Shown piece by piece: positions 1 to 12,093 of a stretch of 64,000 bases of DNA. The translations under genes were made by a program, and so were the position numbers. The notes beneath the pieces were generated by a model. The model ran no database searches. It was not told the DNA's origin and saw nothing but the letters and a program-made list of their open reading frames with translations. This DNA comes from an uncultured Nitrospiraceae bacterium (GTDB taxonomy: Bacteria; Nitrospirota; Thermodesulfovibrionia; Thermodesulfovibrionales; UBA6898). Within the stretch, counting starts at the first letter, position 1; each line of letters starts with the position of its first letter. The stretch lies in the NCBI GenBank assembly GCA_963811165.1, contig CAWEQH010000010.1, positions 928,001-992,000 on the forward strand, given 5' to 3'.

Positions 1-653
1 GTAAAGGCCCCTTTCTTATACCCGAACAGCTCACTTTCAACAAGAAGGTCAGGGATCAGTCCGATGTCGACGCTCACGAAGGGCTTCCCGGACCTCGCGC
101 TCAGGTTCTGTATGGCACCTGCCACCACCGACTTTCCCGTGCCTGTCTCCCCCTGGATTATTACCGAAAAATTCGTCTGCGCCACCTGCTTGATCCTGTC
201 GACGACCGTCTTCATTGCGCCGCTTCGGCCGATCTGGTGTTCAAGCGACGACTCAAGCGCTGTGGTGGTCCTTTTGACCTCAATCTCAAGCCGCCGCTTT
301 TCTAGGGCCTTCCTGAGGGTAAAAACGAGCCTGTCGAATTCGGGAGGCTTAATCAGAAAATCATAAACACCGTGCTTTATCGCATCAACCGCGGTAGGGA
401 TGTCGCCGTATGCGGTAAGAATAATAACGGGCACGTCCGGGCCGATTTTCCTGATCTCCTGCATCGCATCGATACCGTTCATGTAAGGCATATTCAGATC
501 GAGCAGAACCGCATCCGGGGGGTCCTTTCTGAAGAGTTTGATGGCGCTGATGCCATCCCCGGCCTCGGTCGTAGCGAAGCCCTCTTCTTTCAACACGTCC
601 CTGACTACACCTCTTAAGTCCCTGTCGTCATCGACAACGAGTATTCTTTCCAT
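1..653 (-). CDS. Sigma54-dependent (NtrC-family) response regulator, partial (runs off left edge)
   Basis: Not in ORF track; translated manually from ATG at 653. MERILVVDDD... REC domain (LLDLNMP), then AAA+ Walker A GETGTGKS and ESELFGYKKGAFT. The start abuts the kinase stop at 654-656. Confidence 0.93.
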   Translation of the reverse strand, partial: MERILVVDDDRDLRGVVRDVLKEEGFATTEAGDGISAIKLFRKDPPDAVLLDLNMPYMNGIDAMQEIRKIGPDVPVIILTAYGDIPTAVDAIKHGVYDFLIKPPEFDRLVFTLRKALEKRRLEIEVKRTTTALESSLEHQIGRSGAMKTVVDRIKQVAQTNFSVIIQGETGTGKSVVAGAIQNLSARSGKPFVSVDIGLIPDLLVESELFGYKKGAF

Positions 654-2240
654 TTATCGGTCCTCTTCGCCTGCGTCCTCTGCCGCCCCGTCTTCCACAT
701 CTCCCTCTGATGCTCCAACTAGGGGCAGGTATATTGCAAACTCCGTTCCCTCCCCCTTCTTCGTATCAACTTCTATCCGTCCTTTATGCCGTTCTATTAT
801 ACCGTATACAATCGAAAGTCCGAGGCCTGTTCCCTTGCCCACGTCCTTTGTAGTGAAATAGGGCTCAAATATCCTCTCTTTGACCTGTTCATCCATGCCG
901 GGCCCCGTATCACTTACTGAAATTACCGCGTATGTCCCGGGATTGAGAGACTTGCTTCCCTCCCCCACACTGGCGGACCTTGTAGTTACCGTAATCACCC
1001 CTCCGTCGGGCATCGCATCGCGCGCGTTCGAACAAAGGTTCATAAGGACCTGCTCCATCTGAAGGCGGTCCGTCAGTGCTGTCAGACGTTCCTCCGAAAG
1101 AGAGATAATCAACCCGATCTCTTCTCCCGCGATATTCAGAAGCATCGGCCGCAGGTCTCTGATGATAGTATTTATGTTCATCGGGTGTAAATTGATTGTA
1201 TGCGTTTTGCTGAAGGCAAGCAGTCCGCGTATCAGGTTCTGGGCCTTTGTTATCGAATTATGCACCTGCTCGGTATACTGCCTCAAGTTGACCTGCTCTT
1301 GAAGCTTCTTCTCCATAAGGTAGATGGACCCCCTGAGGGTTGCGAGGATATTGTTGAAGTCATGTGCAATTCCCCGTGCTAGGGTCCCTATCGCCTCCAT
1401 CTTCTGGGCATGTCTGAGCCGCTCTTCGAGGGCCTCTTTTTCCTCTTCCCTCTTTTTAAGGTCCTCGTACATAATGTTGAAATCGACGGCGAGTCTTCCT
1501 ATCTCGTCCATCGACTCCACAGGGACTTTCTCGATCGTCTCCCCCCTGCCAAGAGACCTCACGGATAGGGCAAGTCTCGTGAGAGGCTGGGTGACCCTGT
1601 GGATGGCGATATAGATGGCGATGCTGCCCGCAAGGAGAAAAACCAGAGCAATGAGGGCGTTCCTTAATATAATGACTTTCATCTCCCGCCTAAGTATGTC
1701 CTTATCGAGTATGACCTCTACGTAACCGATCACACTTCGTTCGCTTGACGGAGCGGAGACATCAAAATAAAGCGCCTCCTCTGCATTTCTATAGGTCTCA
1801 AGATAGACAGGGGCGAGAAAAACGATGGTATCTTCCCTTTCCACAGGCTCGGGTATCCTGTCGCCGGGGTCTGGCGCAAATGCTTCAGGGACAAGCGAGG
1901 TCGTCTTCGGGACCTCTTGCTCCGTGGTCTTCCTGGTCTCAACGAGCAGCGCCTTCTTCTCCATGTTATATATCGCTACGGCGAGGACGTTCTTCTGGCC
2001 CATTATCCCCTGCACCGCATCTTTAAGCATGTCCTTGTTCTCAGCGAAGACCCACGTCCTGGTATTGTAGGCGAGCAGGTCGGCAAGCATCTTTCCCTCG
2101 TTGTAAAGGTCTTTTCGGACTGCCCTGTTTTCATGATAGATGAAAAAGGCTGTGAAGCCCGCAAAAACCAGGAAGATCGAGACCGCAAACGACCTGAATA
2201 CTTTGAAACTGAAACTATTTTTTGTCCTTTCAGTCAACAT
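654..2240 (-). CDS. Membrane sensor histidine kinase (periplasmic domain, HAMP, HisKA, HATPase)
   Basis: Two TM segments around a periplasmic loop, HAMP (PLTRLA...DEIGRLA), H-box GIAHDFNN, N box NARDAM, G boxes DTGPGM and GTGLGL. Confidence 0.93.
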   Translation of the reverse strand: MLTERTKNSFSFKVFRSFAVSIFLVFAGFTAFFIYHENRAVRKDLYNEGKMLADLLAYNTRTWVFAENKDMLKDAVQGIMGQKNVLAVAIYNMEKKALLVETRKTTEQEVPKTTSLVPEAFAPDPGDRIPEPVEREDTIVFLAPVYLETYRNAEEALYFDVSAPSSERSVIGYVEVILDKDILRREMKVIILRNALIALVFLLAGSIAIYIAIHRVTQPLTRLALSVRSLGRGETIEKVPVESMDEIGRLAVDFNIMYEDLKKREEEKEALEERLRHAQKMEAIGTLARGIAHDFNNILATLRGSIYLMEKKLQEQVNLRQYTEQVHNSITKAQNLIRGLLAFSKTHTINLHPMNINTIIRDLRPMLLNIAGEEIGLIISLSEERLTALTDRLQMEQVLMNLCSNARDAMPDGGVITVTTRSASVGEGSKSLNPGTYAVISVSDTGPGMDEQVKERIFEPYFTTKDVGKGTGLGLSIVYGIIERHKGRIEVDTKKGEGTEFAIYLPLVGASEGDVEDGAAEDAGEEDR

Positions 2241-3171
2241 GTTCCGCCCTGTGTAGGATGTCGTCCCTCACCTTTATTCCGAATTTTCTGATAATCTTCC
2301 CGTTGACCGCAAGGACCGCACTTCTGGCGTCTGTCCTTACAGCCTTGGGGTTCTTCTCTGCGACCAGCTTCCGTGCTATCTCTCCTGCCTGAACGCCTAT
2401 GTCGAAAGGCGAGCTATAGAGACCGGCGGCGGACCCCATCTCGACATATTTCTTCGAAAATGTAAATATAGGGACCTTATTCCTGAATGAGAAAAGGAGA
2501 AGGTATTTCACTGTCTCGGGGTTAATCACGGTCGTATCGGGAAGCATCCAAAAGACGTCTATTTTGTCCTTCATCGAATCCACAAGAGCAGGGATATCGG
2601 CCTGTCTTGAAGCTTTTCTAAGGACAAGTTCTACGCCCCTGCCCTGTGCTGATTGCGAGGCTTCCTTTATATATGCCTCCGAGTTTCTGGGGTCGTATAT
2701 CACACCTATTCTCCTTAAGCCGTGGAAGACGTCGAGCATGGAGCCTATATACTTGTCGGGCTGGATATACATACTGACGCCGGAGAGGGGCTTCGCTCCG
2801 GCACTCAGGGTCTGGGAATTGGGGACCATGGCATATATGACCGGGATGTCCCTGACCGACCTTGCGAGGTTAAGTGCGTCCATCCCGATGGCAAAGACCG
2901 CCACTATGTCGGAATCATGGACTTTACTAAGGATGTCTGAGGGCTCCGCCTCGGCCATGACCACTTCACTTACGTCATGATCGCAGGAAGTCCTAAACCC
3001 CTCAAGCGCATCGTTATAAGGCTTTATTTCTGCACTTTTTATCGCGACGATCTCGCCCGCCTCTGACGAGGCTGCGAAACCAATGAGGAAGAGCAACGTA
3101 ATTATTACAAAAAAAGAAGATCTCTTGTTCAATCCGTCCCCACGGAGAATTTTATCAGTTGAATATAACAA
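2230..3171 (-). CDS. ABC-type periplasmic substrate-binding protein (ABC_sub_bind-like), no adjacent permease or ATPase
   Basis: Signal peptide (likely TTG start at 3132, ...AASSEA); RRIGVIYDP, DVFWMLPD and IGVQAGEIA motifs typical of the family. Overlaps the kinase start. Confidence 0.8.
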   Translation of the reverse strand: MLYSTDKILRGDGLNKRSSFFVIITLLFLIGFAASSEAGEIVAIKSAEIKPYNDALEGFRTSCDHDVSEVVMAEAEPSDILSKVHDSDIVAVFAIGMDALNLARSVRDIPVIYAMVPNSQTLSAGAKPLSGVSMYIQPDKYIGSMLDVFHGLRRIGVIYDPRNSEAYIKEASQSAQGRGVELVLRKASRQADIPALVDSMKDKIDVFWMLPDTTVINPETVKYLLLFSFRNKVPIFTFSKKYVEMGSAAGLYSSPFDIGVQAGEIARKLVAEKNPKAVRTDARSAVLAVNGKIIRKFGIKVRDDILHRAEHVD

Positions 3172-3219
3172 AAGCGGGTGAATAACACAATAATATTATA
3201 GATTATTCGACAATTACGC

Positions 3220-3247
3220 GTAGGGGCGTGTTGCAACGTGCCCCTGC
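3220..3247. repeat. GTAG-type REP-like palindrome
   Basis: gtaggggcgtgttgcaacgtgcccctgc, an imperfect inverted repeat; related copy at 21056-21083. Confidence 0.6.
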
Positions 3248-3303
3248 ATTTACTCGCCCCCCTGCCTCTATAGAATTACCCTGTGTTTTGTGTCTTACCA
3301 CTA

Positions 3304-3393
3304 CCCCTCCGCACCTCCCCTTACAAAAGGGAAGATTTCAGGAGGCCATTTCCCTGGCTTCATCCCCTCCTTAGCAAGGAGGGGTGAGGTGAG
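3304..3393. repeat. CCCC(T)CCTT-n3-AAGG(A)GGGG palindromic repeat doublet
   Basis: cccctccttagcaaggagggg at 3364-3384 and degenerate ctccccttacaaaagggaag near 3315-3334; related copy at 24356-24388. Confidence 0.6.
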
Positions 3394-3406
3394 CTAGTTT
3401 CTTCTC

Positions 3407-4723
3407 TTACTTCCCGACCAGTCCGTACTTTATGTCTTGCTTCACAACGGCCTCGAGCGTGGCGTCAAGGTATGGTTTCTTGCAGTCAACTCCTTCCATA
3501 TTTCCATCACGGACGAGTTTCATGTGACGGCATCCTCCGAAACAGAGGGGGAGATACACGCAGCTTAGACACTCTTCATTCTTCCAGCAGTCTTTGCCGT
3601 GAGGCTGCATTTTATACTTGATGCCGGTCCTGAGATCGCCGACCTTGAATTCCTCGCGGCCGACTAGCGAGGGGCACTTGTAGATACTTCCATCGTAATT
3701 CACAAGATAGTTATCTTTCATGTCTAGTGAACATACACCAGGAACCGTACTTCGCGGGCCCTTGTAGCCCCGCTTAAGCACCTCCCCGCTCAGATAGACA
3801 CTCGCCTCAAAGAGCCAAGGCTCATTAAAGCTGCAGCATCCTTCATTGAAATCAGCCGGTCCGTATCCGTAACTCTCTGCCGTCACCGGATTGAACCTCA
3901 CGGACTCAACTTTGTCTGGAGTAAGGCCATTGGCGAGCATAAAATCGAGAAGATAGGGAAATTCACGGTAATTGTCCTGCATATAATTTCCGCCGACCTG
4001 GATGCCGATCATTTCACAAACTTCTTTCAGGTTTCCAAAAATCCTTTCAAAGCTGCCCTTGCCGGAGGTAAAAGGCCTGAAAAGGTCGTGTAGTTCCTTA
4101 GTACCGTCGAGCGTAACAACGGCTCCTCTCACCCCATGAGGTGTAAGCCTGGACACTACATGCGGGGTGAGAAGGGTCCCGTTCGTAACAATATAGGCCG
4201 CATATCCTATACCCTTTTCTTCGGAAAACCCTTTTATCCTTTCTGAAACGCAGGCCACAAGGTCCAAGCTCAGAAGGGGCTCCCCACCATAAAAGGTTAT
4301 CGCTATCTTCTCATCGCCGGTCCTTCCGTCAAGCCCTTCCGCCCATCTTTCAACAAAGCCGATAAAAAGGTCGGCGGTCTCCTGTGTCATATAGAATTTC
4401 CCCTTGCGCTGGCCTTCGAAACAATACTTGCATGCAAGGTTGCAATCGAGGTTCATCACGATCTTCGCGGCGAAGGTGCGGGAAATTGCATTGAGGTCAT
4501 CGATAAAACCGAGCATCTCTTCATGCTCTGAATCAGCACCTTCGCTAAGGAAACCGAGGGCCGACAGGGTCTTCAGCTCCTCCCCTGAGATGCGGCCGGA
4601 TTCGATCTCAGCGAACATGCCTGAAGGAATGCTGATTATCGAACCCTTTTTCGCAGAAAAAAGGATGAGCGCTCCAGGCTCATCCCAGTTGTTAAAGATC
4701 CTCAGATACCTTGTTAAAATCAT
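3407..4723 (-). CDS. Radical SAM/SPASM peptide maturase (geopeptide-maturase-like), about 438 aa
   Basis: CNLACKYC (CxxxCxxC), FYGGEPLL, VTNGTLL, TLDG; C-terminal SPASM (C...DGSIYKC...VGD...CLSCVYLPLCFGGC...C). True start is probably ATG 4723 (MILTRY); the ORF-track extension to 4864 overlaps the precursor gene. Confidence 0.92.
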   Translation of the reverse strand: MILTRYLRIFNNWDEPGALILFSAKKGSIISIPSGMFAEIESGRISGEELKTLSALGFLSEGADSEHEEMLGFIDDLNAISRTFAAKIVMNLDCNLACKYCFEGQRKGKFYMTQETADLFIGFVERWAEGLDGRTGDEKIAITFYGGEPLLSLDLVACVSERIKGFSEEKGIGYAAYIVTNGTLLTPHVVSRLTPHGVRGAVVTLDGTKELHDLFRPFTSGKGSFERIFGNLKEVCEMIGIQVGGNYMQDNYREFPYLLDFMLANGLTPDKVESVRFNPVTAESYGYGPADFNEGCCSFNEPWLFEASVYLSGEVLKRGYKGPRSTVPGVCSLDMKDNYLVNYDGSIYKCPSLVGREEFKVGDLRTGIKYKMQPHGKDCWKNEECLSCVYLPLCFGGCRHMKLVRDGNMEGVDCKKPYLDATLEAVVKQDIKYGLVGK

Positions 4724-4736
4724 ATATCTTCGAAAT

Positions 4737-4767
4737 AACCGGGGAGAAGCAGTTTCGCTCCCCGGTT
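4737..4767 (-). promoter_or_regulatory. Stem-loop between precursor peptide and maturase (mRNA-stabilising or partial terminator)
   Basis: Perfect 10-bp inverted repeat aaccggggag...ctccccggtt, 8 nt after the peptide stop. Confidence 0.7.
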
Positions 4768-4775
4768 CCGGGGCA

Positions 4776-4877
4776 TTACCTCGCCAGCTTCCCTGTCGGC
4801 GCTGAGGTACAGCACGCCATTGCAGCCAGGTCTTTCTTTTCCACTCCCTTTTCCAGGATAACAATCCGCTTTACCAT
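4776..4877 (-). CDS. RiPP precursor peptide, 33 aa: MVKRIVILEKGVEKKDLAAMACCTSAPTGKLAR (geopeptide-like)
   Basis: Manual translation: GGAGGT RBS shortly upstream of ATG (4877), TAA at 4776-4778. Charged leader plus Cys-Cys core, directly upstream of the rSAM/SPASM gene. Confidence 0.88.
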   Translation of the reverse strand: MVKRIVILEKGVEKKDLAAMACCTSAPTGKLAR

Positions 4878-4921
4878 TCTTCCACCTCCAATTAAGAAAT
4901 GCGCATCCCAATGGACACGGG

Positions 4922-6814
4922 TCACAATTTTACCCTCAAGCCTCCCTCTATCCATCTTTCGGCATTCTTGTAGTTTTCTATCCAGTACTGAGCGCCGTTG
5001 AACAGATTGTGCATTGTCAAGAAGACCTCTGCGCTATATGAGTTGCCCCTATAGACAGTCTTTATCGCATTGAAATCGAAGATAAAGCCGTTGTATTTGG
5101 CGTTGAAATCTGCAGATGCATTCCACCATATATAATGACCCTTCAGGAGTGCCCGGAAAGATTTTTTGTCGTCGTACTGGAGACCTATATCATAAGTATA
5201 CGTGGGATTGCCGCTTATCTCTTCTCCTGTTTCACGGTCCTCGGTGTGGATGAAGGAGGCAGCGGCCGAAAGCGTGAAATTATATATAGGGACAGTCTTG
5301 ATCGCCGCCTCGAGTCCTTGCCTTCTCACCCTGTCCCTATTAATGTAAGTCCATGTCCCTTCATCGATTGAAATGTCCTCCCTCGTTATCGCGTCGCGGA
5401 TATCGTGCCTGAATCCCGAGACCTTCAGCCAGAGGTATTTCAACGCGCCGGTCTCGACCCCGAGCTGGTAAGACCAAACCTTTTCAAGTTTGAGATCAGG
5501 GTTATTCACAAAGAATGGGCCACTGGCATAGAGAAATGTCACCGCCGGAATATTGAACCCTCTTGCAACAACACCTCTTAGTATTGTCTTGTCCGCGATC
5601 TCATAGGTAGCGCCCAGGCTAGGGCTAAGGGTATTCGACTTTAGGCTCGTTCCGTCAACATCGACACTGTCAACCCGCAGACCGGGGATGACCGTAAATC
5701 TCCCCAGCGAGATGGTATCGTTCAGATAAGCTGCTGCTATATGCTCGTCGAATTTCGTATCCCCAAAATAAGATCCCTTCACGCGATATAAGTCATAGTC
5801 TCCGCCAAAGACAAGGGAGTGGATTCCCTGTCTGAACTCACCCTTTACGCTCGCCCCATATTTATTGTCCTGAAGGTTGCTCGGTGTGACTGTTCCCTCA
5901 ACAAGGTCCGTCGTGGTACCGGATGACAACTTCTGCTCGGCCCTTGCAGAAACGTCAACCGAAATAGTATCGCTCAGCCTGCTCTTGACGCCAAGAGAGG
6001 AAAGAAGGACCTCATCCTGCGTATCGAAACTGAGGCCGAAGGCCTCGAAGTCACCGCCCTGGTTTCGCGCCTTATTATAAAAAAGGCTGTAAGTGACAAC
6101 TGTGTCTTTCGAAAAATCATAAGAAAGTTTTCCGTAAAGACTGTTTCGGGAACTTATATCATGGGTCGTCAGACCGTCGGTCTGGAGCCTGCCGCTATAG
6201 AGATAGTAGCCGATCTGATCTTTTTTTCCGCTCAACTCGGCCCTGAAGTCGCCGGTGTTCCTTTCGCCGTACGACCCGGAGATGACCCCGCGAGTTCCAT
6301 CACCCGAGGGAGTCTTTGTAATAACATTGACTATGCCCCCCAACGATGAACCCCATACCGAAGATGCCGGCCCCTTGATCACCTCGACCTTATCGATCAT
6401 CTGCACCGGTATAAGGTCAGCGTCAGCAAAGCCCCCGGAAAGGTCACTGATACGGACGCCGTCGATGAGTATGACTACATGATCGACCCTGGAACCCTGT
6501 ATCTGTGCGTTTGCTATACTGCCCGGACTTCCGCCGCCAAAGCTCACCTGCACCCCGTTCACCGTATTCAAAACATCTCCGAGCGTATGGGCATTCATAA
6601 GTTCGATGTCTTCTTTAGTCACGACCTCCACATTCTCCGCAATGCGCGTGATCGACTTGAGGCTCCTTGTTGCGGATATGACCTGGATCTCGTCTTCCTT
6701 GAAATACATAAGAAGGAAACTCTTCTCTTCCTCAGACATTGCAAACGCAGGGGTAGAGAAAGGTGATAGGATGAAGATCAAAAAAAGAACGAATGCGGTC
6801 TTACTGAAAGACAT
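4922..6814 (-). CDS. TonB-dependent outer-membrane receptor
   Basis: Signal peptide, VISATRS plug start, VILIDG, IDKVEVIKGPASSVWG, beta-barrel, NLFN...GLRVKL C-terminus. Confidence 0.93.
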   Translation of the reverse strand: MSFSKTAFVLFLIFILSPFSTPAFAMSEEEKSFLLMYFKEDEIQVISATRSLKSITRIAENVEVVTKEDIELMNAHTLGDVLNTVNGVQVSFGGGSPGSIANAQIQGSRVDHVVILIDGVRISDLSGGFADADLIPVQMIDKVEVIKGPASSVWGSSLGGIVNVITKTPSGDGTRGVISGSYGERNTGDFRAELSGKKDQIGYYLYSGRLQTDGLTTHDISSRNSLYGKLSYDFSKDTVVTYSLFYNKARNQGGDFEAFGLSFDTQDEVLLSSLGVKSRLSDTISVDVSARAEQKLSSGTTTDLVEGTVTPSNLQDNKYGASVKGEFRQGIHSLVFGGDYDLYRVKGSYFGDTKFDEHIAAAYLNDTISLGRFTVIPGLRVDSVDVDGTSLKSNTLSPSLGATYEIADKTILRGVVARGFNIPAVTFLYASGPFFVNNPDLKLEKVWSYQLGVETGALKYLWLKVSGFRHDIRDAITREDISIDEGTWTYINRDRVRRQGLEAAIKTVPIYNFTLSAAASFIHTEDRETGEEISGNPTYTYDIGLQYDDKKSFRALLKGHYIWWNASADFNAKYNGFIFDFNAIKTVYRGNSYSAEVFLTMHNLFNGAQYWIENYKNAERWIEGGLRVKL

Positions 6815-6931
6815 ATTTCGAATCCTCCGAAAGTTTTTTATTTGTCTATTTTTACGCCGTTTTTTCAGCCCTTCTAAATATTAATTTTTCGAAGTATATT
6901 CTATTCAAACCGCTGCTGTCTAGAGAAAAAT

Positions 6932-6948
6932 AAGCAATTGCGCATCCC
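6932..6948 (-). promoter_or_regulatory. Possible sigma54 (-24/-12) promoter for the receptor-peptide operon
   Basis: Minus strand GGGATGCGCAATTGCTT gives GG-N10-GC with TTGCT, but the -24 flank departs from TGGCACG. Confidence 0.35.
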
Positions 6949-7134
6949 TGCAGTTATGGGTAAGACCCACCCCTCCCAAGTGGGAGACAAGACAGAACTC
7001 GGGACACACTTGCGATGCCTCCACTTAGCATGCACTGAAAAAGATCAATTCTACGATGGAGGGAGGTCACTCATTGCTCACGATATCAGGAACGCTCCGC
7101 CGGCGACGATATTTAAGCGGCTTCAATCCAGAAT

Positions 7135-7170
7135 AAAAAAAGGGTCTGCAGACAAACTCTGCAGACCCCT
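7135..7170 (-). terminator. Rho-independent terminator of the atp operon
   Basis: gggtctgcaga-caaac-tctgcagaccc stem with an A7 tract on the plus strand (U tract on minus). Confidence 0.85.
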
Positions 7171-7201
7171 GCTAATCTATATACTTCATACTTCCCGAAA
7201 G

Positions 7202-7615
7202 CTATTTGACTCTTCTGATTTCTACAATTTGGGCCCTGGTGACCGCCCGTTCGAGCGCTGACTCGGCCCTTGCGAAGTCGACATTCTCGGCGTGCTTCAG
7301 CCTTTCTTCAGCCCTCTTTCTGGCTGCGATGGCCCGCTCGACGTCGATCTCCTCGGACTTCTCGGCGCTGTCCGCAAGGATCATCACCTTTTCGTGGCCG
7401 ACCTCCGCATAGCCCCAGTTCACAAAGAAGAACTTGGACTCGTTACCTTTCTTGCAGGCCAGCATGCCTATCTTGAGCGTCGTGACAAAGGGCACGTGAC
7501 CGGGAAGGACCCCGAATTCACCTTCGCTTCCTGAAGCGGTGACTTCGTCGACCTCGTCGCTGAAGACCAGACCCTGCGGGGTCACTATTTCGAGAAGGAT
7601 TTTTCCCTCTGCCAT
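7202..7615 (-). CDS. atpC: ATP synthase F1 epsilon subunit
   Basis: LEIVTP, GEFGVLPGHVP; last gene of the operon. Confidence 0.97.
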   Translation of the reverse strand: MAEGKILLEIVTPQGLVFSDEVDEVTASGSEGEFGVLPGHVPFVTTLKIGMLACKKGNESKFFFVNWGYAEVGHEKVMILADSAEKSEEIDVERAIAARKRAEERLKHAENVDFARAESALERAVTRAQIVEIRRVK

Positions 7616-7618
7616 CGT

Positions 7619-9037
<1,419 letters not shown>

Positions 9038-9088
9038 CTACCCCCAAATGTATTTTCACTTAGTGTATTCATTGCGTATCCTTTATCT

Positions 9089-9959
9089 TTATCCCTTTAG
9101 GGCCTCGACGCCGCCGACAATATCCATGAGTTCCTTGGTAATGGTGGCCTGTCTCGCCTTGTTATACTGGAGCGAAAGAGCATCGATCATATCGTTGGCA
9201 GCCCTTGTCGCATTTTCCATCGCGGCCATCCTGGCGGCTTCTTCCGACGCCTGCGATTCAAGGAGCGCCCTGAAGACCTGGATCTCGACATTCTTCGGAA
9301 CAAGCCTGCTGAATATCTCCTGCTTAGAAGGCTCATAGATAAAGTTGTACACAGGAAGAGACTCTTCGCTCGCCTTGATCGGCTCAAGAGGAAGCAGTCT
9401 CTGGACCACAACCTGCTGTGCGATAGCGGACTTGAACTCGTTATATATAAGCACGACCTCGTCGATCGTTTCGTTCGTATAATTTTCGATAATATCCGCC
9501 GCTATCTCCTGGGCGTTCCCATACGATATCTTCCCGGAGATGCCGGTCCATGCTTTTGCCATCTCGATTCCGCGCCTTTTGTAATAGTCGCGGGCCTTTC
9601 TTCCGACAATGCTGATACCGACCTCATAACCTTCTTTCTTCAGCCCCTCGGTATGCCGTGTGCGCAGCCTTAAGTATATTGGTGTTAAAGGCGCCGCAAA
9701 GCCCTCTGTCGCTCGTCAGCACGAGCACCTGGATGTTCTTCCTCGGCCTCACTGCGAGAAGTGGGTGAATCTCCCCCTCCGCGCTGCTTGCGAGGCTGGA
9801 CAGTATGCCATTCATCCTGTCGGCATACGGCCTCATCTCAAACATCCTTTGCTGGGCCTTCCTGAATTTCGCGGCGGCGACCATCTTCATCGCCTTTGTG
9901 ATTTTGCTCGTGCTCTGTACCGCTTTTATTCTTCTTTTTATGTCTCTCAGTGTCGCCAT
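9089..9959 (-). CDS. atpG: ATP synthase F1 gamma subunit, split by a +1 frameshift near 9655-9663
   Basis: N-part KITKAMKMVAAAK, SDRGLCG; C-part ARMAAMENAT, NKARQATITKEL. Removing one base joins them via RHTEGLKKEGYEVGISIVGRKARDYY. Confidence 0.93.
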
Positions 9960-10010
9960 GTTCTTATCCTTTATCGTGACCGTTAATGAGTGATATTCCT
10001 TTTTTTCTAC

Positions 10011-10035
10011 TCACTATTCACTAATCACTATTACT
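10011..10035. repeat. Short tandem heptamer repeat (TCACTAW x3)
   Basis: tcactat tcactaa tcactat tact, between atpA and atpG. Confidence 0.5.
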
Positions 10036-10039
10036 GTCT

Positions 10040-11549
10040 TTAAGGCTGAAACCCTTTCTTGAAGTCCGTGATCGCAGCGACCAGTTTGGCCTTGAGATCA
10101 TCGTCGATCGCCTTCTTTCTGTTCGAGTTCCTTCAAGACGTCGGCCTTGCGGTCCTTCATATAGCGGAGGATCTCCTCCTCGAATTTCCTTACGGATTCG
10201 ACGGGTATGTCGTCGATGAATCCCTGTGTAGCGGCAAATAGTACCGTGACCTGTTCAACCATGGACATAGGGACGTACTGGCCCTGCTTAAGGAGTTCGA
10301 CCATCCTCTTACCTCTTTCGATCTGAGCGAGGGTAGACTTATCGAGGTCGCTTCCGAACTGCGCAAACGCAGCAAGTTCCCTGAACTGTGCAAGGTCGAG
10401 CCTGAGCGTACCGGCCACCTGCTTCATAGCCTTCGTCTGGGCGGCGCCGCCGACACGACTGACCGAAAGTCCGACGTTGACCGCGGGTCTCACGCCGGCA
10501 TAGAAAAGTTCCGGTTCGAGGTATATCTGACCGTCAGTGATCGAGATAACGTTAGTCGGGATATAGCCCGAAACGTCACCGGCCTGCGTCTCGATGATCG
10601 GCAGTGCCGTCAAAGACCCGCCGCCGAGCGCATCAGAAACTCTCGCGGCCCTTTCAAGAAGCCTCGAATGGAGATAGAAAACGTCGCCAGGGAAAGCCTC
10701 TCGACCCGGCGGACGTCTAAGAAGAAGTGAGAGCTGCCTGTAGGCGGTCGCCTGCTTACTCAAGTCATCATATATGATCAAAGCGTGTCTGCCGCTGTCC
10801 CTGAAAAATTCTCCCATTGCGCAACCGGTATATGGGGCGATATATTGAAGTGGGGCAGGCTCGCTCGCCGTTGAGGAAACGATGATCGTATGTTCCATGG
10901 CGCCGTTTTCTTCGAGCGTCTTCATGACGCGGGCGACGTTCGAACGCTTCTGACCGATCGCCACATAGATGCAGGTCACGTCCCCGCCCCTTTGGTTGAT
11001 GATCGCATCTATGCCGATTGCGGTTTTTCCCGTCTGACGGTCGCCGATGATAAGCTCTCTTTGTCCCCTTCCGACCGGGATCATCGAGTCTATAGCCTTA
11101 AGTCCCGTCTGAAGCGGCTGGTTGACCGGCTGCCTTTCGATGATACCTGGGGCGACCATGTCGACGATCCTCAGTTCCTTGGTGTTGATGGGGCCTTTCC
11201 CGTCGATAGGCTGGCCGATGGCGTTGACGACCCTTCCGCGAAGTTCATCGCCTACGGGGACCGACATGATCCTGCCGGTACGCTTCACCACGTCCCCTTC
11301 ATGGATAAGTGAGTCTTCGCCGAAGAGGACCGCTCCGACGCTGTCTTCTTCCAGGTTGAGGGCCATGCCCATAACTCCGCCGGGGAACTCTAAAAGTTCC
11401 GACGACATGCATTTGTCGAGGCCGTAGACCCTGGCGATACCGTCACCTACGGAGATTACCGTGCCGACTTCGCTTACATCGACCTTCTTTTCAAAGTCAG
11501 TTATCTGTTTCCTTAAAAGCTCACTTATCTCGTCTACTTTAATCTCCAT
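10040..11549 (-). CDS. atpA: ATP synthase F1 alpha subunit, +1 frameshift near 10116-10118
   Basis: [20 protein letters not shown]. Removing one A restores the C-terminus [25 protein letters not shown] (502 aa). Confidence 0.97.
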
Positions 11550-11553
11550 CTGA

Positions 11554-12093
11554 TCACCCCTTTATAAGCTCATCTTTTAGAAGCCTAAGTTGGCCTTTTA
11601 CGCTGCTGTCATACATGGTGCTGCCCACCTTTACGAGAACCCCGCCAAAAAGAGATGGGTCGAGCACATATTCAATGTCGACGTCCCTCTCGATCAGTTT
11701 CTTCAGTGACGCCTTGAGTCTCTCCTCGTGGTTCTTGCTCACCTCAACCGGCGTCATAACCACCGCCTTTGCGCGCTTCTTCTTTTCCAGATAAAGCGCG
11801 GTCGCAATTTTTATGATGTCAGAAAGGGCCGCGATCACCTTGATAGCGGTAAGGTGCATAACAAACTTGACGACCTTGTCGGAAAGTCCTGCCTTCGCGG
11901 CTACCTGCTGGAACGCCTTTTCCCTCTCTGCACCTGTAAAGCCCGGGTTCACGAGAAGGCTGCCGAACTCCCTGCTCTTTTGCATCAGGTCCGCAACCAT
12001 GCCGAGTTCGGCCAAGGCCTTGGGCATCTCCTCGACGCCCACTACGCTGATCAATGTCTTTGCGTATTTCTTTGCCTGTTTTACCGGTTTCAA
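11554..12093 (-). CDS. atpH: ATP synthase delta subunit
   Basis: [33 protein letters not shown]; operon position. Confidence 0.95.

Follow-up and report, generated by a model that had tools for sequence, protein, structure and literature searches.

The 64,000-nt stretch analysed here (the window), from a contig of an uncultured Nitrospiraceae bacterium, contains a 33-codon gene for a Cys-Cys peptide between a TonB-dependent receptor and a radical SAM/SPASM enzyme of the named family TIGR04280 (Table 1). This ORF is a real gene rather than a chance one, and its product is very probably the substrate of the adjacent enzyme. The overall reading that we tentatively prefer, while granting it slightly less than an even chance, is that the enzyme cyclises the Cys-Cys peptide through sactionine bonds and that the product is imported by the receptor and sensed by the binding protein and kinase. 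In the window, the order receptor, peptide, maturase, PF04392 protein, kinase and sigma-54 regulator runs on one strand after the terminator of the atp operon (7140–7170).

Table 1. Features of the cassette, with their positions in the window (- denotes the minus strand).
Feature	Position	Strand	Basis or remark
Sigma-54-dependent response regulator	3..653	-	cut off by the window edge; full length of 447 aa in the genome
Sensor histidine kinase (periplasmic sCache_4, HAMP, HisKA, HATPase)	654..2240	-	
Periplasmic binding protein PF04392	2230..3171	-	overlaps the kinase start
Radical SAM/SPASM maturase (TIGR04280), 438 aa	3407..4723	-	profile, motifs, predicted structure
GC-rich hairpin in the spacer between peptide stop and maturase start	4737..4767	-	likely partial terminator or 3' stabiliser
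Geopeptide-type precursor, 33 aa	4776..4877	-	profile, coding signature, locus conservation
Cys22-Cys23 codons	4809..4814	-	sole invariant core residues of the family
Shine-Dalgarno sequence GGAGGT	4884..4889	-	6 nt 5' of the peptide ATG
TonB-dependent outer-membrane receptor (plug and barrel), 630 aa	4922..6814	-	
Sigma-70-like promoter match (10/12) upstream of the receptor	6893..6922	-	consensus match only

Read from 4877 to 4776, the minus strand translates as MVKRIVILEKGVEKKDLAAMACCTSAPTGKLAR followed by a stop, and comprises a basic, beta-strand leader (approximately residues 1–15), the Cys22-Cys23 pair and a polar tail of 10 residues. A reading of the same interval on the plus strand was rejected for its internal stop. 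The first-pass annotation had proposed a GGAGGT ribosome-binding site and a leader-like VILEKG segment, and both are borne out: the former lies ahead of the ATG, as SD-like sequences do for most relatives' peptides, and the latter recurs among the relatives as an (I/V)(I/V)LxKG segment. It was also right in regarding the radical SAM ORF as mis-extended, since the ORF list places its start at the TTG at position 4864, so that it crosses the peptide in a different frame, whereas the match to TIGR04280 sets in at the ATG at 4723, which is taken as the start of the enzyme. In the same list, the peptide is present merely as the end of an ORF of 59 aa, the start of which overlaps with the receptor gene. 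The description of the gene as unannotated holds only in part: the protein collection (NCBI and ENA sources) already lists a called protein of the identical 33 residues, although in a nameless cluster of three members. Five of 10 sequences looked up in this collection were present (4 of 9 peptides).

Several observations show the coding nature of this ORF. A profile of 22 relatives' peptides, from which both peptides of the host genome were left out, was searched against the 102,574 six-frame fragments of that genome and retrieved the two at E-values of 7.5e-12 and 1.5e-11, the next best match being at 1.3. Similarly, among 222 SD-led ORFs of 25–45 aa in the genome, two have Cys-Cys 9–15 residues from their end, and these are the two cassette peptides. 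In alignments of the relatives (23 distinct peptides, 7,571 codon pairs), the mismatch at codon positions 1, 2 and 3 was 0.45, 0.34 and 0.68, respectively; third positions thus show double the mismatch of second positions, which is a coding signature. In addition, 1,979 of 3,204 codon pairs encoding the same residue differ synonymously, the leader being kept at the protein level. The 33-aa peptide has no Pfam family, no signal peptide was seen in it, and the ESM Atlas returned unnamed clusters of 30–31 aa at 0.86–0.87, to be taken as leads only.

The enzyme matches TIGR04280, the NCBIfam “geopeptide radical SAM maturase” model (of the hypoth_equivalog type), with 539.2 bits against a cut-off of 400, positions 1–427 of the 428 in the model aligning to residues 1–433, and it also exceeds the cut-off of TIGR04085 (49.9 bits vs 27). 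The only NCBIfam match of the peptide is to TIGR04229, geopeptide, over residues 5–26, with 14.5 bits against a cut-off of 30 (E 0.024). It is therefore called geopeptide-type here and not filed under TIGR04229. Consequently, the novelty implied by the first-pass annotation does not stand: the enzyme belongs to a named family, and the peptide is related, below threshold, to a named precursor. The curated precursor model in fact misses every relative scanned, as it matched 9 of 32 locus peptides (best 23.3 bits) and, at E ≤ 0.001, 8 of 110 cluster peptides (best 24.2 bits), none reaching 30, and it gave no match in a search of the host genome. With its 22 positions, this model leaves out the first residues of the peptide and the tail. 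The system resembles the TIGR04280/TIGR04229 pair in having a full-length enzyme above the cut-off with an adjacent peptide matching the precursor model, and differs from it in the score of the peptide and in its receptor, binding protein and kinase, none of which is mentioned in the names of the two models.

The CxxxCxxC motif of the enzyme comprises C94, C98 and C101, and the SPASM cysteines are residues 331, 350, 385, 388, 394, 398 and 414; these ten positions are invariant in 78 of 78 enzymes. The AlphaFold model (pLDDT 93.5) begins with three strands followed by three helices at residues 7–80 (pLDDT >90), a predicted N-terminal domain of the RRE type. CteB is the top PDB match both by Foldseek (E 2.5e-22) and by sequence, and residues 4–432 align structurally to residues 1–448 of CteB, including its N-terminus (Z 28.5, rmsd 4.8, 385 aligned residues). 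Nevertheless, anSME (28.4) and ChlB (27.7) reach nearly the same Z-score, showing that the fold does not fix the chemistry. The spacing of the seven SPASM cysteines matches the 3+4 scheme of cluster ligands given for CteB and PapB in the available part of PMC10177961, a spacing that would leave a site on auxiliary cluster I for a substrate sulfur. A further cysteine in the linker, Cys296, is kept in 73/78, 29/33 and 75/80 enzymes of three sets. By analogy with SuiB, in which a linker cysteine fills the open cluster site according to the accessible portion of PMC6231123, Cys296 could be an eighth ligand at this site, which would weaken the analogy with CteB. The enzyme thus shares with CteB, PapB and Tte1186 the RRE (predicted here), the radical SAM domain and the seven-Cys SPASM domain with 3+4 spacing, as far as the excerpted source describes them, whereas it is about 22% identical to them, far under the cut-offs of those families, usually carries the extra Cys296, and is accompanied by peptides with an adjacent Cys pair instead of a CxxxD or six-Cys pattern. 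With respect to the RRE-type domain, the ESM Atlas gave a weak lead to PqqD-bearing clusters (0.88–0.89).

Matches to the maturase were found in 49 of the 401 genomes of the phylum, and the two named genome loci returned for it both belong to Nitrospirota. We compared 33 loci, namely the window, the second copy in the same genome, two named contigs and a further 29 loci drawn from the 30 best matches in the phylum, one duplicate of the window having been dropped. At all 33, a small ORF lies between receptor and maturase, encoding Cys-Cys in 32 and Cys-Phe in one, in agreement with the earlier suggestion that a small ORF should be conserved upstream of homologous maturases. Of 483 metagenome loci, 80 were kept, 64 of them with at least 220 nt upstream, and in this set, some sequences of which overlap with the genome loci, a Cys-Cys peptide precedes the maturase at 55 of 64 loci, compared with 0 of 64 reverse-strand controls. 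The nine misses consist of one peptide located 1.2 kb upstream, three variants (Cys-Phe, CxC or CxxC) and five loci with none. The peptide profile, trained on many of the genomes that it matches, finds 28 of the 401 phylum genomes, all of them among the 49 with a maturase, without a match in the remaining 352; 21 maturase-positive genomes were missed, some of them owing to long Lys-rich leaders. Four divergent maturases (29–44% identity) retain the Cys-Cys ORF, and no such ORF was found behind nine of nine receptors read that have no adjacent maturase. Therefore, the peptide follows the enzyme and not the receptor. Two maturase loci (L072 and L074) have no peptide within the 290 and 680 nt examined, and at three others (L027, L102 and L069), the peptide is retained although roughly 1 kb or more separates it from the maturase. 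The separation at L027 and L069 is by an opposite-strand gene pair (PIN toxin-antitoxin-like, by eye) or by an inversion. At another locus (L156:4743-6019, G242), the alignments of maturase and receptor break up into several pieces in different frames, and the peptide is intact.

The relation between peptide and enzyme extends to the variable tail. Across 23 loci, tail similarity tracks the maturase with a partial r of 0.39 when controlled for receptor and binding protein (0 of 500 permutations as high), whereas the values are -0.08 for the binding protein and 0.11 for the receptor, the latter reached by 16% of permutations; as the genomes are related, these correlations overstate independence. 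Polar and hydrophobic tails, separated by a threshold of our own, are grouped on the tree (5 changes, against 8.8 when shuffled; 3/500), although not as one clade. The locus L002 occupies the same site after the atp operon as the window cassette, with 80–81% identity in the binding protein and kinase, 53% in the receptor, 56% in the maturase and a different tail, which suggests that its receptor-peptide-enzyme module was swapped or is fast-changing.

The distribution of the neighbouring genes provides the context for a possible function; the first-pass annotation does not refer to the receptor, binding protein and kinase genes that accompany the pair. A TonB-dependent receptor is located upstream of the peptide at all 33 loci, and the PF04392 binding protein lies downstream within the flank at 27; a kinase is usually present as well. 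At two of the remaining six loci, the binding protein and kinase are located divergently upstream; three loci have no binding protein in 13–16 kb and one is at a contig edge. The linkage thus persists under both gene arrangements. The binding protein has neither an ABC permease nor an ATPase beside it, the window cassette contains no protease or exporter, and no tailoring enzyme, protease or cofactor-using enzyme recurs around 13 extended loci. The host genome (95% complete) encodes TonB and ExbD and has only two PF00593 matches, both in its two cassettes. The second cassette (G000:C10:865177-871117; L003, L043) combines a maturase of 619 bits with a hydrophobic-tail peptide and a half-size MFS behind the maturase; its binding protein and hybrid kinase lie upstream of the receptor in divergent orientation. 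With two cassettes that differ in their tails and account for both receptor matches, this genome is a good test bed. Among 121 genomes of the order, 20 have the maturase, 25 the receptor subfamily and 25 the binding-protein subfamily; 19 and 18 of the 20 maturase genomes have the receptor and the binding-protein subfamily, respectively. In six of the 121, both receptor and binding protein occur but the maturase gave no match; three of these contain whole receptor-binding protein-kinase trios, two are at contig edges and one has an interrupted receptor. The whole trios (L055, L056 and L058, in G031, G086 and G217) are in genomes 99–100% complete and have no peptide behind the receptor. From these six genomes, it follows that the trio eavesdrops or senses something else.

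In the reading that we prefer, leader removal and export would use unlinked proteins, for which the half-MFS behind the second cassette may be mentioned. The mature product would then enter through the TonB-dependent receptor and load the transporter-less PF04392 protein, and the loaded binding protein would switch the kinase and the sigma-54 activator. We consider this post-export route, taken whole, as possible, though short of probable. If the product were the ligand of the trio, uncultured anaerobes of wetlands and the subsurface would have a way to signal with peptides across an outer membrane. The wider generalisation, in which geopeptide cassettes would be a peptide signalling system of outer-membrane anaerobes (release, TonB re-uptake, PF04392 protein and Cache kinase), with two channels possible per genome, as for the polar and hydrophobic tails here, and maturase-less trios as eavesdroppers, is rather unlikely as it stands. 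A sequence-specific signal fits poorly with the lack of covariation between tail and binding protein, with the binding protein of L002, about 80% identical despite the different tail, and with the lack of a linked exporter or protease. In addition, the 58 regions upstream of receptors contain no sigma-54-type promoter, so there is no sign of a positive feedback loop.

Alternatively, the trio could sense an unrelated environmental ligand, the peptide and maturase being an independent insert with a product active elsewhere, e.g., an antimicrobial. As a proposal on function alone, it agrees with any of the chemistries discussed below. It would account for trios without a maturase, the further lone receptors of the subfamily that were seen, cassettes without a binding protein and the lack of covariation between tail and binding protein. 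Nevertheless, an independent insert would not be expected to have a receptor directly upstream at every one of the 33 loci, nor to keep this linkage through both gene orders, nor to occur with a receptor subfamily found in 19 of 20 maturase genomes and in just 25 of 121 genomes overall. We regard it as somewhat unlikely.

Concerning the chemistry, a search of the peptide profile against 1.84 billion representatives gave 111 short clusters (at 50% identity), all of 29–73 aa and all with Cys-Cys. This pair alone is invariant, the tail varying from 7 to 14 residues; of the ACC motif put forward in the first-pass annotation, CC is thus confirmed, whereas the preceding Ala is found in merely 25 of 110 peptides. 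The residue at +3 from the first Cys is Gly, Ala or Ser in 76 of 110 (most commonly Gly, 56/110), and that at +3 from the second Cys in 82 of 110, a small residue being absent at these positions in about a quarter to a third of the peptides. Several departures from the usual precursor were observed. Six genome loci (L020, L024, L031, L032, L039 and L040) and several metagenome loci have long Lys/Ala-rich, histone-H1-like leaders (51–88 aa) with the same Cys-Cys core; L022, L093, L114 and L130 have variant cores, i.e., Cys-Phe (a single Cys, in an 85-aa precursor), CxC and CxxC; and L155:4000-4480 (G308) has a tandem pair of precursor genes that share a near-identical leader but differ in their tails.

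For the peptide of the window, we propose that the RRE-type domain of the enzyme would pair with residues 3–11 as a beta-strand, as the leader of CteB is bound by its RRE as an added strand in the portion of PMC6231123 at hand. Each Cys, held at auxiliary cluster I, would then be joined to the small residue at +3 through the alpha-carbon of the latter, giving C22-S25 and/or C23-A26 sactionines (-2 Da each) like those of streptosactin, whose alpha-thioethers join Cys31 to Gly34 and Cys25 to Ser28 according to the partial text of PMC8172795. Since Gly has no side-chain carbon and is the commonest residue at +3, a link common to the family would go to the alpha-carbon. Some thioether in the product is slightly favoured over none, and the sactionine form, at C22-S25 and/or C23-A26, is the leading candidate with a little under an even chance; Cys oxidation comes next, followed by a ranthionine or a small excised cofactor. 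As described in the part of PMC8172795 available, streptosactin and its enzyme GggB resemble the present system in the small residue three after Cys and in a link to signalling, and differ in that the cysteines of streptosactin are six apart, its rings are unnested and its cluster is controlled by quorum sensing. Here, in contrast, the cysteines are adjacent and the host has an outer membrane, with a TonB receptor, PF04392 protein and kinase; GggB was compared by description.

Cysteine oxidation would be of the kind carried out by SbtM, i.e., to a thioaldehyde and then a 5-thiooxazole, yielding a two-thiol metal chelator that would be re-imported and its metal sensed. Metal chelates are commonly imported by TonB receptors. 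A ligand defined by Cys-Cys would fit both the invariance of this pair within tails of such variable length and the lack of covariation between binding protein and tail; moreover, anSME ties with CteB in fold score and Cys296 could complete cluster I. In the available text of PMC9204691, SbtM is a radical SAM/SPASM maturase that acts on Cys in Geobacter-type anaerobes, as would the enzyme here, and it requires a GGUG motif. In contrast, the GG(U/C)G motif of SbtM is absent from our peptides (GGCC in 2 and GCC in 19 of 111 clusters), and no selenocysteine form was recovered, as no TGA occurs at the Cys positions of 55 metagenome or 32 genome peptides. Similarly, no SbtM-type model is among the best 25 NCBIfam matches of the enzyme, and the 58 regions upstream of receptors contain no clear Fur box (10–13 of 19 positions at best, without a control). 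Overall, this chemistry seems unlikely.

The invariant two-residue core within variable flanks could also indicate that the peptide is a scaffold for a small cofactor cut from its Cys-Cys centre, following the logic of PQQ and mycofactocin. The trio would scavenge and sense this cofactor, and the genomes with maturase-less trios (G031, G086 and G217) would be its consumers. The pocket of the binding protein would suit a small ligand, as its PF04392 relatives with PDB structures are solute-binding proteins, with ligands that we take to be single aromatic amino acids. However, no tailoring, protease or cofactor-using enzyme recurs around the 13 extended loci, the tail covaries with the maturase, and its polar and hydrophobic classes cluster on the tree. 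The patchy presence of the maturase in the phylum and the two unlike cassettes in one genome likewise suit a diversified product better, and an excised cofactor is thus decidedly unlikely. The same low likelihood is given to a ranthipeptide, with thioethers to the beta- or gamma-carbons of T24, S25 or T28 as made by CteB, PapB and Tte1186. Although the closest named or solved relatives of the enzyme are of the PapB/SCIFF/CteB type, and 55 of 110 peptides have Ser or Thr within four residues after Cys-Cys, the other half do not, and Asp or Glu is found in this interval in 1 of 110 and not in the window peptide. No acceptor side chain is therefore conserved, and Gly, the commonest residue at +3, lacks a beta-carbon. 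Of the sactionine and ranthionine put forward in the first-pass annotation, the second is on these grounds the less likely.

We found no paper naming geopeptide, TIGR04280 or TIGR04229, no experiment on this family, nor a description of a radical SAM RiPP cassette with a TonB-dependent receptor in Geobacter or Nitrospirota, in a literature from which subscription journals were largely missing and supplements excluded; the available parts of PMC4289311, PMC3531188 and PMC13188914 do not describe the system. The present analysis contributes the pattern of small residues at +3 with the linkage predicted from it, the maturase-less trios, the covariation of the tail with the enzyme and not with the binding protein, and the genome with two cassettes. 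These data give a specific test, between alpha-thioethers at C22-S25/C23-A26 and Cys oxidation.

Finally, the spacer between peptide and maturase contains a GC-rich hairpin. Structures with z below -2 occur in 27 of 32 spacers downstream of the peptide and in 2 of 32 upstream spacers; a conserved structure upstream of the peptide was consequently rejected. In a consensus of 9 pairs from 23 hand-windowed spacers, changes on both sides occur at 4 pairs. The hairpin of the window has no U-tract, and a wider fold of 68 nt around it is weak (z -1.6); Rfam gave no matches over positions 1–12000 of the window. The hairpin after the peptide stop would raise peptide mRNA over enzyme mRNA, and it likely sets a high peptide-to-enzyme ratio. 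That the peptide is instead no substrate at all, its tandem Cys codons forming a Cys-sensing attenuator leader that controls read-through of this conserved, terminator-like hairpin right before the gene of an Fe-S enzyme, is highly improbable given the protein-level conservation of the leader (with the synonymous differences noted above), the predicted RRE-type domain of the enzyme, the covariation of enzyme and tail, the retention of displaced peptides at L027, L102 and L069 and the tandem copies at L155. In the atp operon (9563–10097 of the window), the gamma and alpha ORFs are shorter or split (gamma into 111 and 157 aa), possibly reflecting frameshifts or assembly errors.
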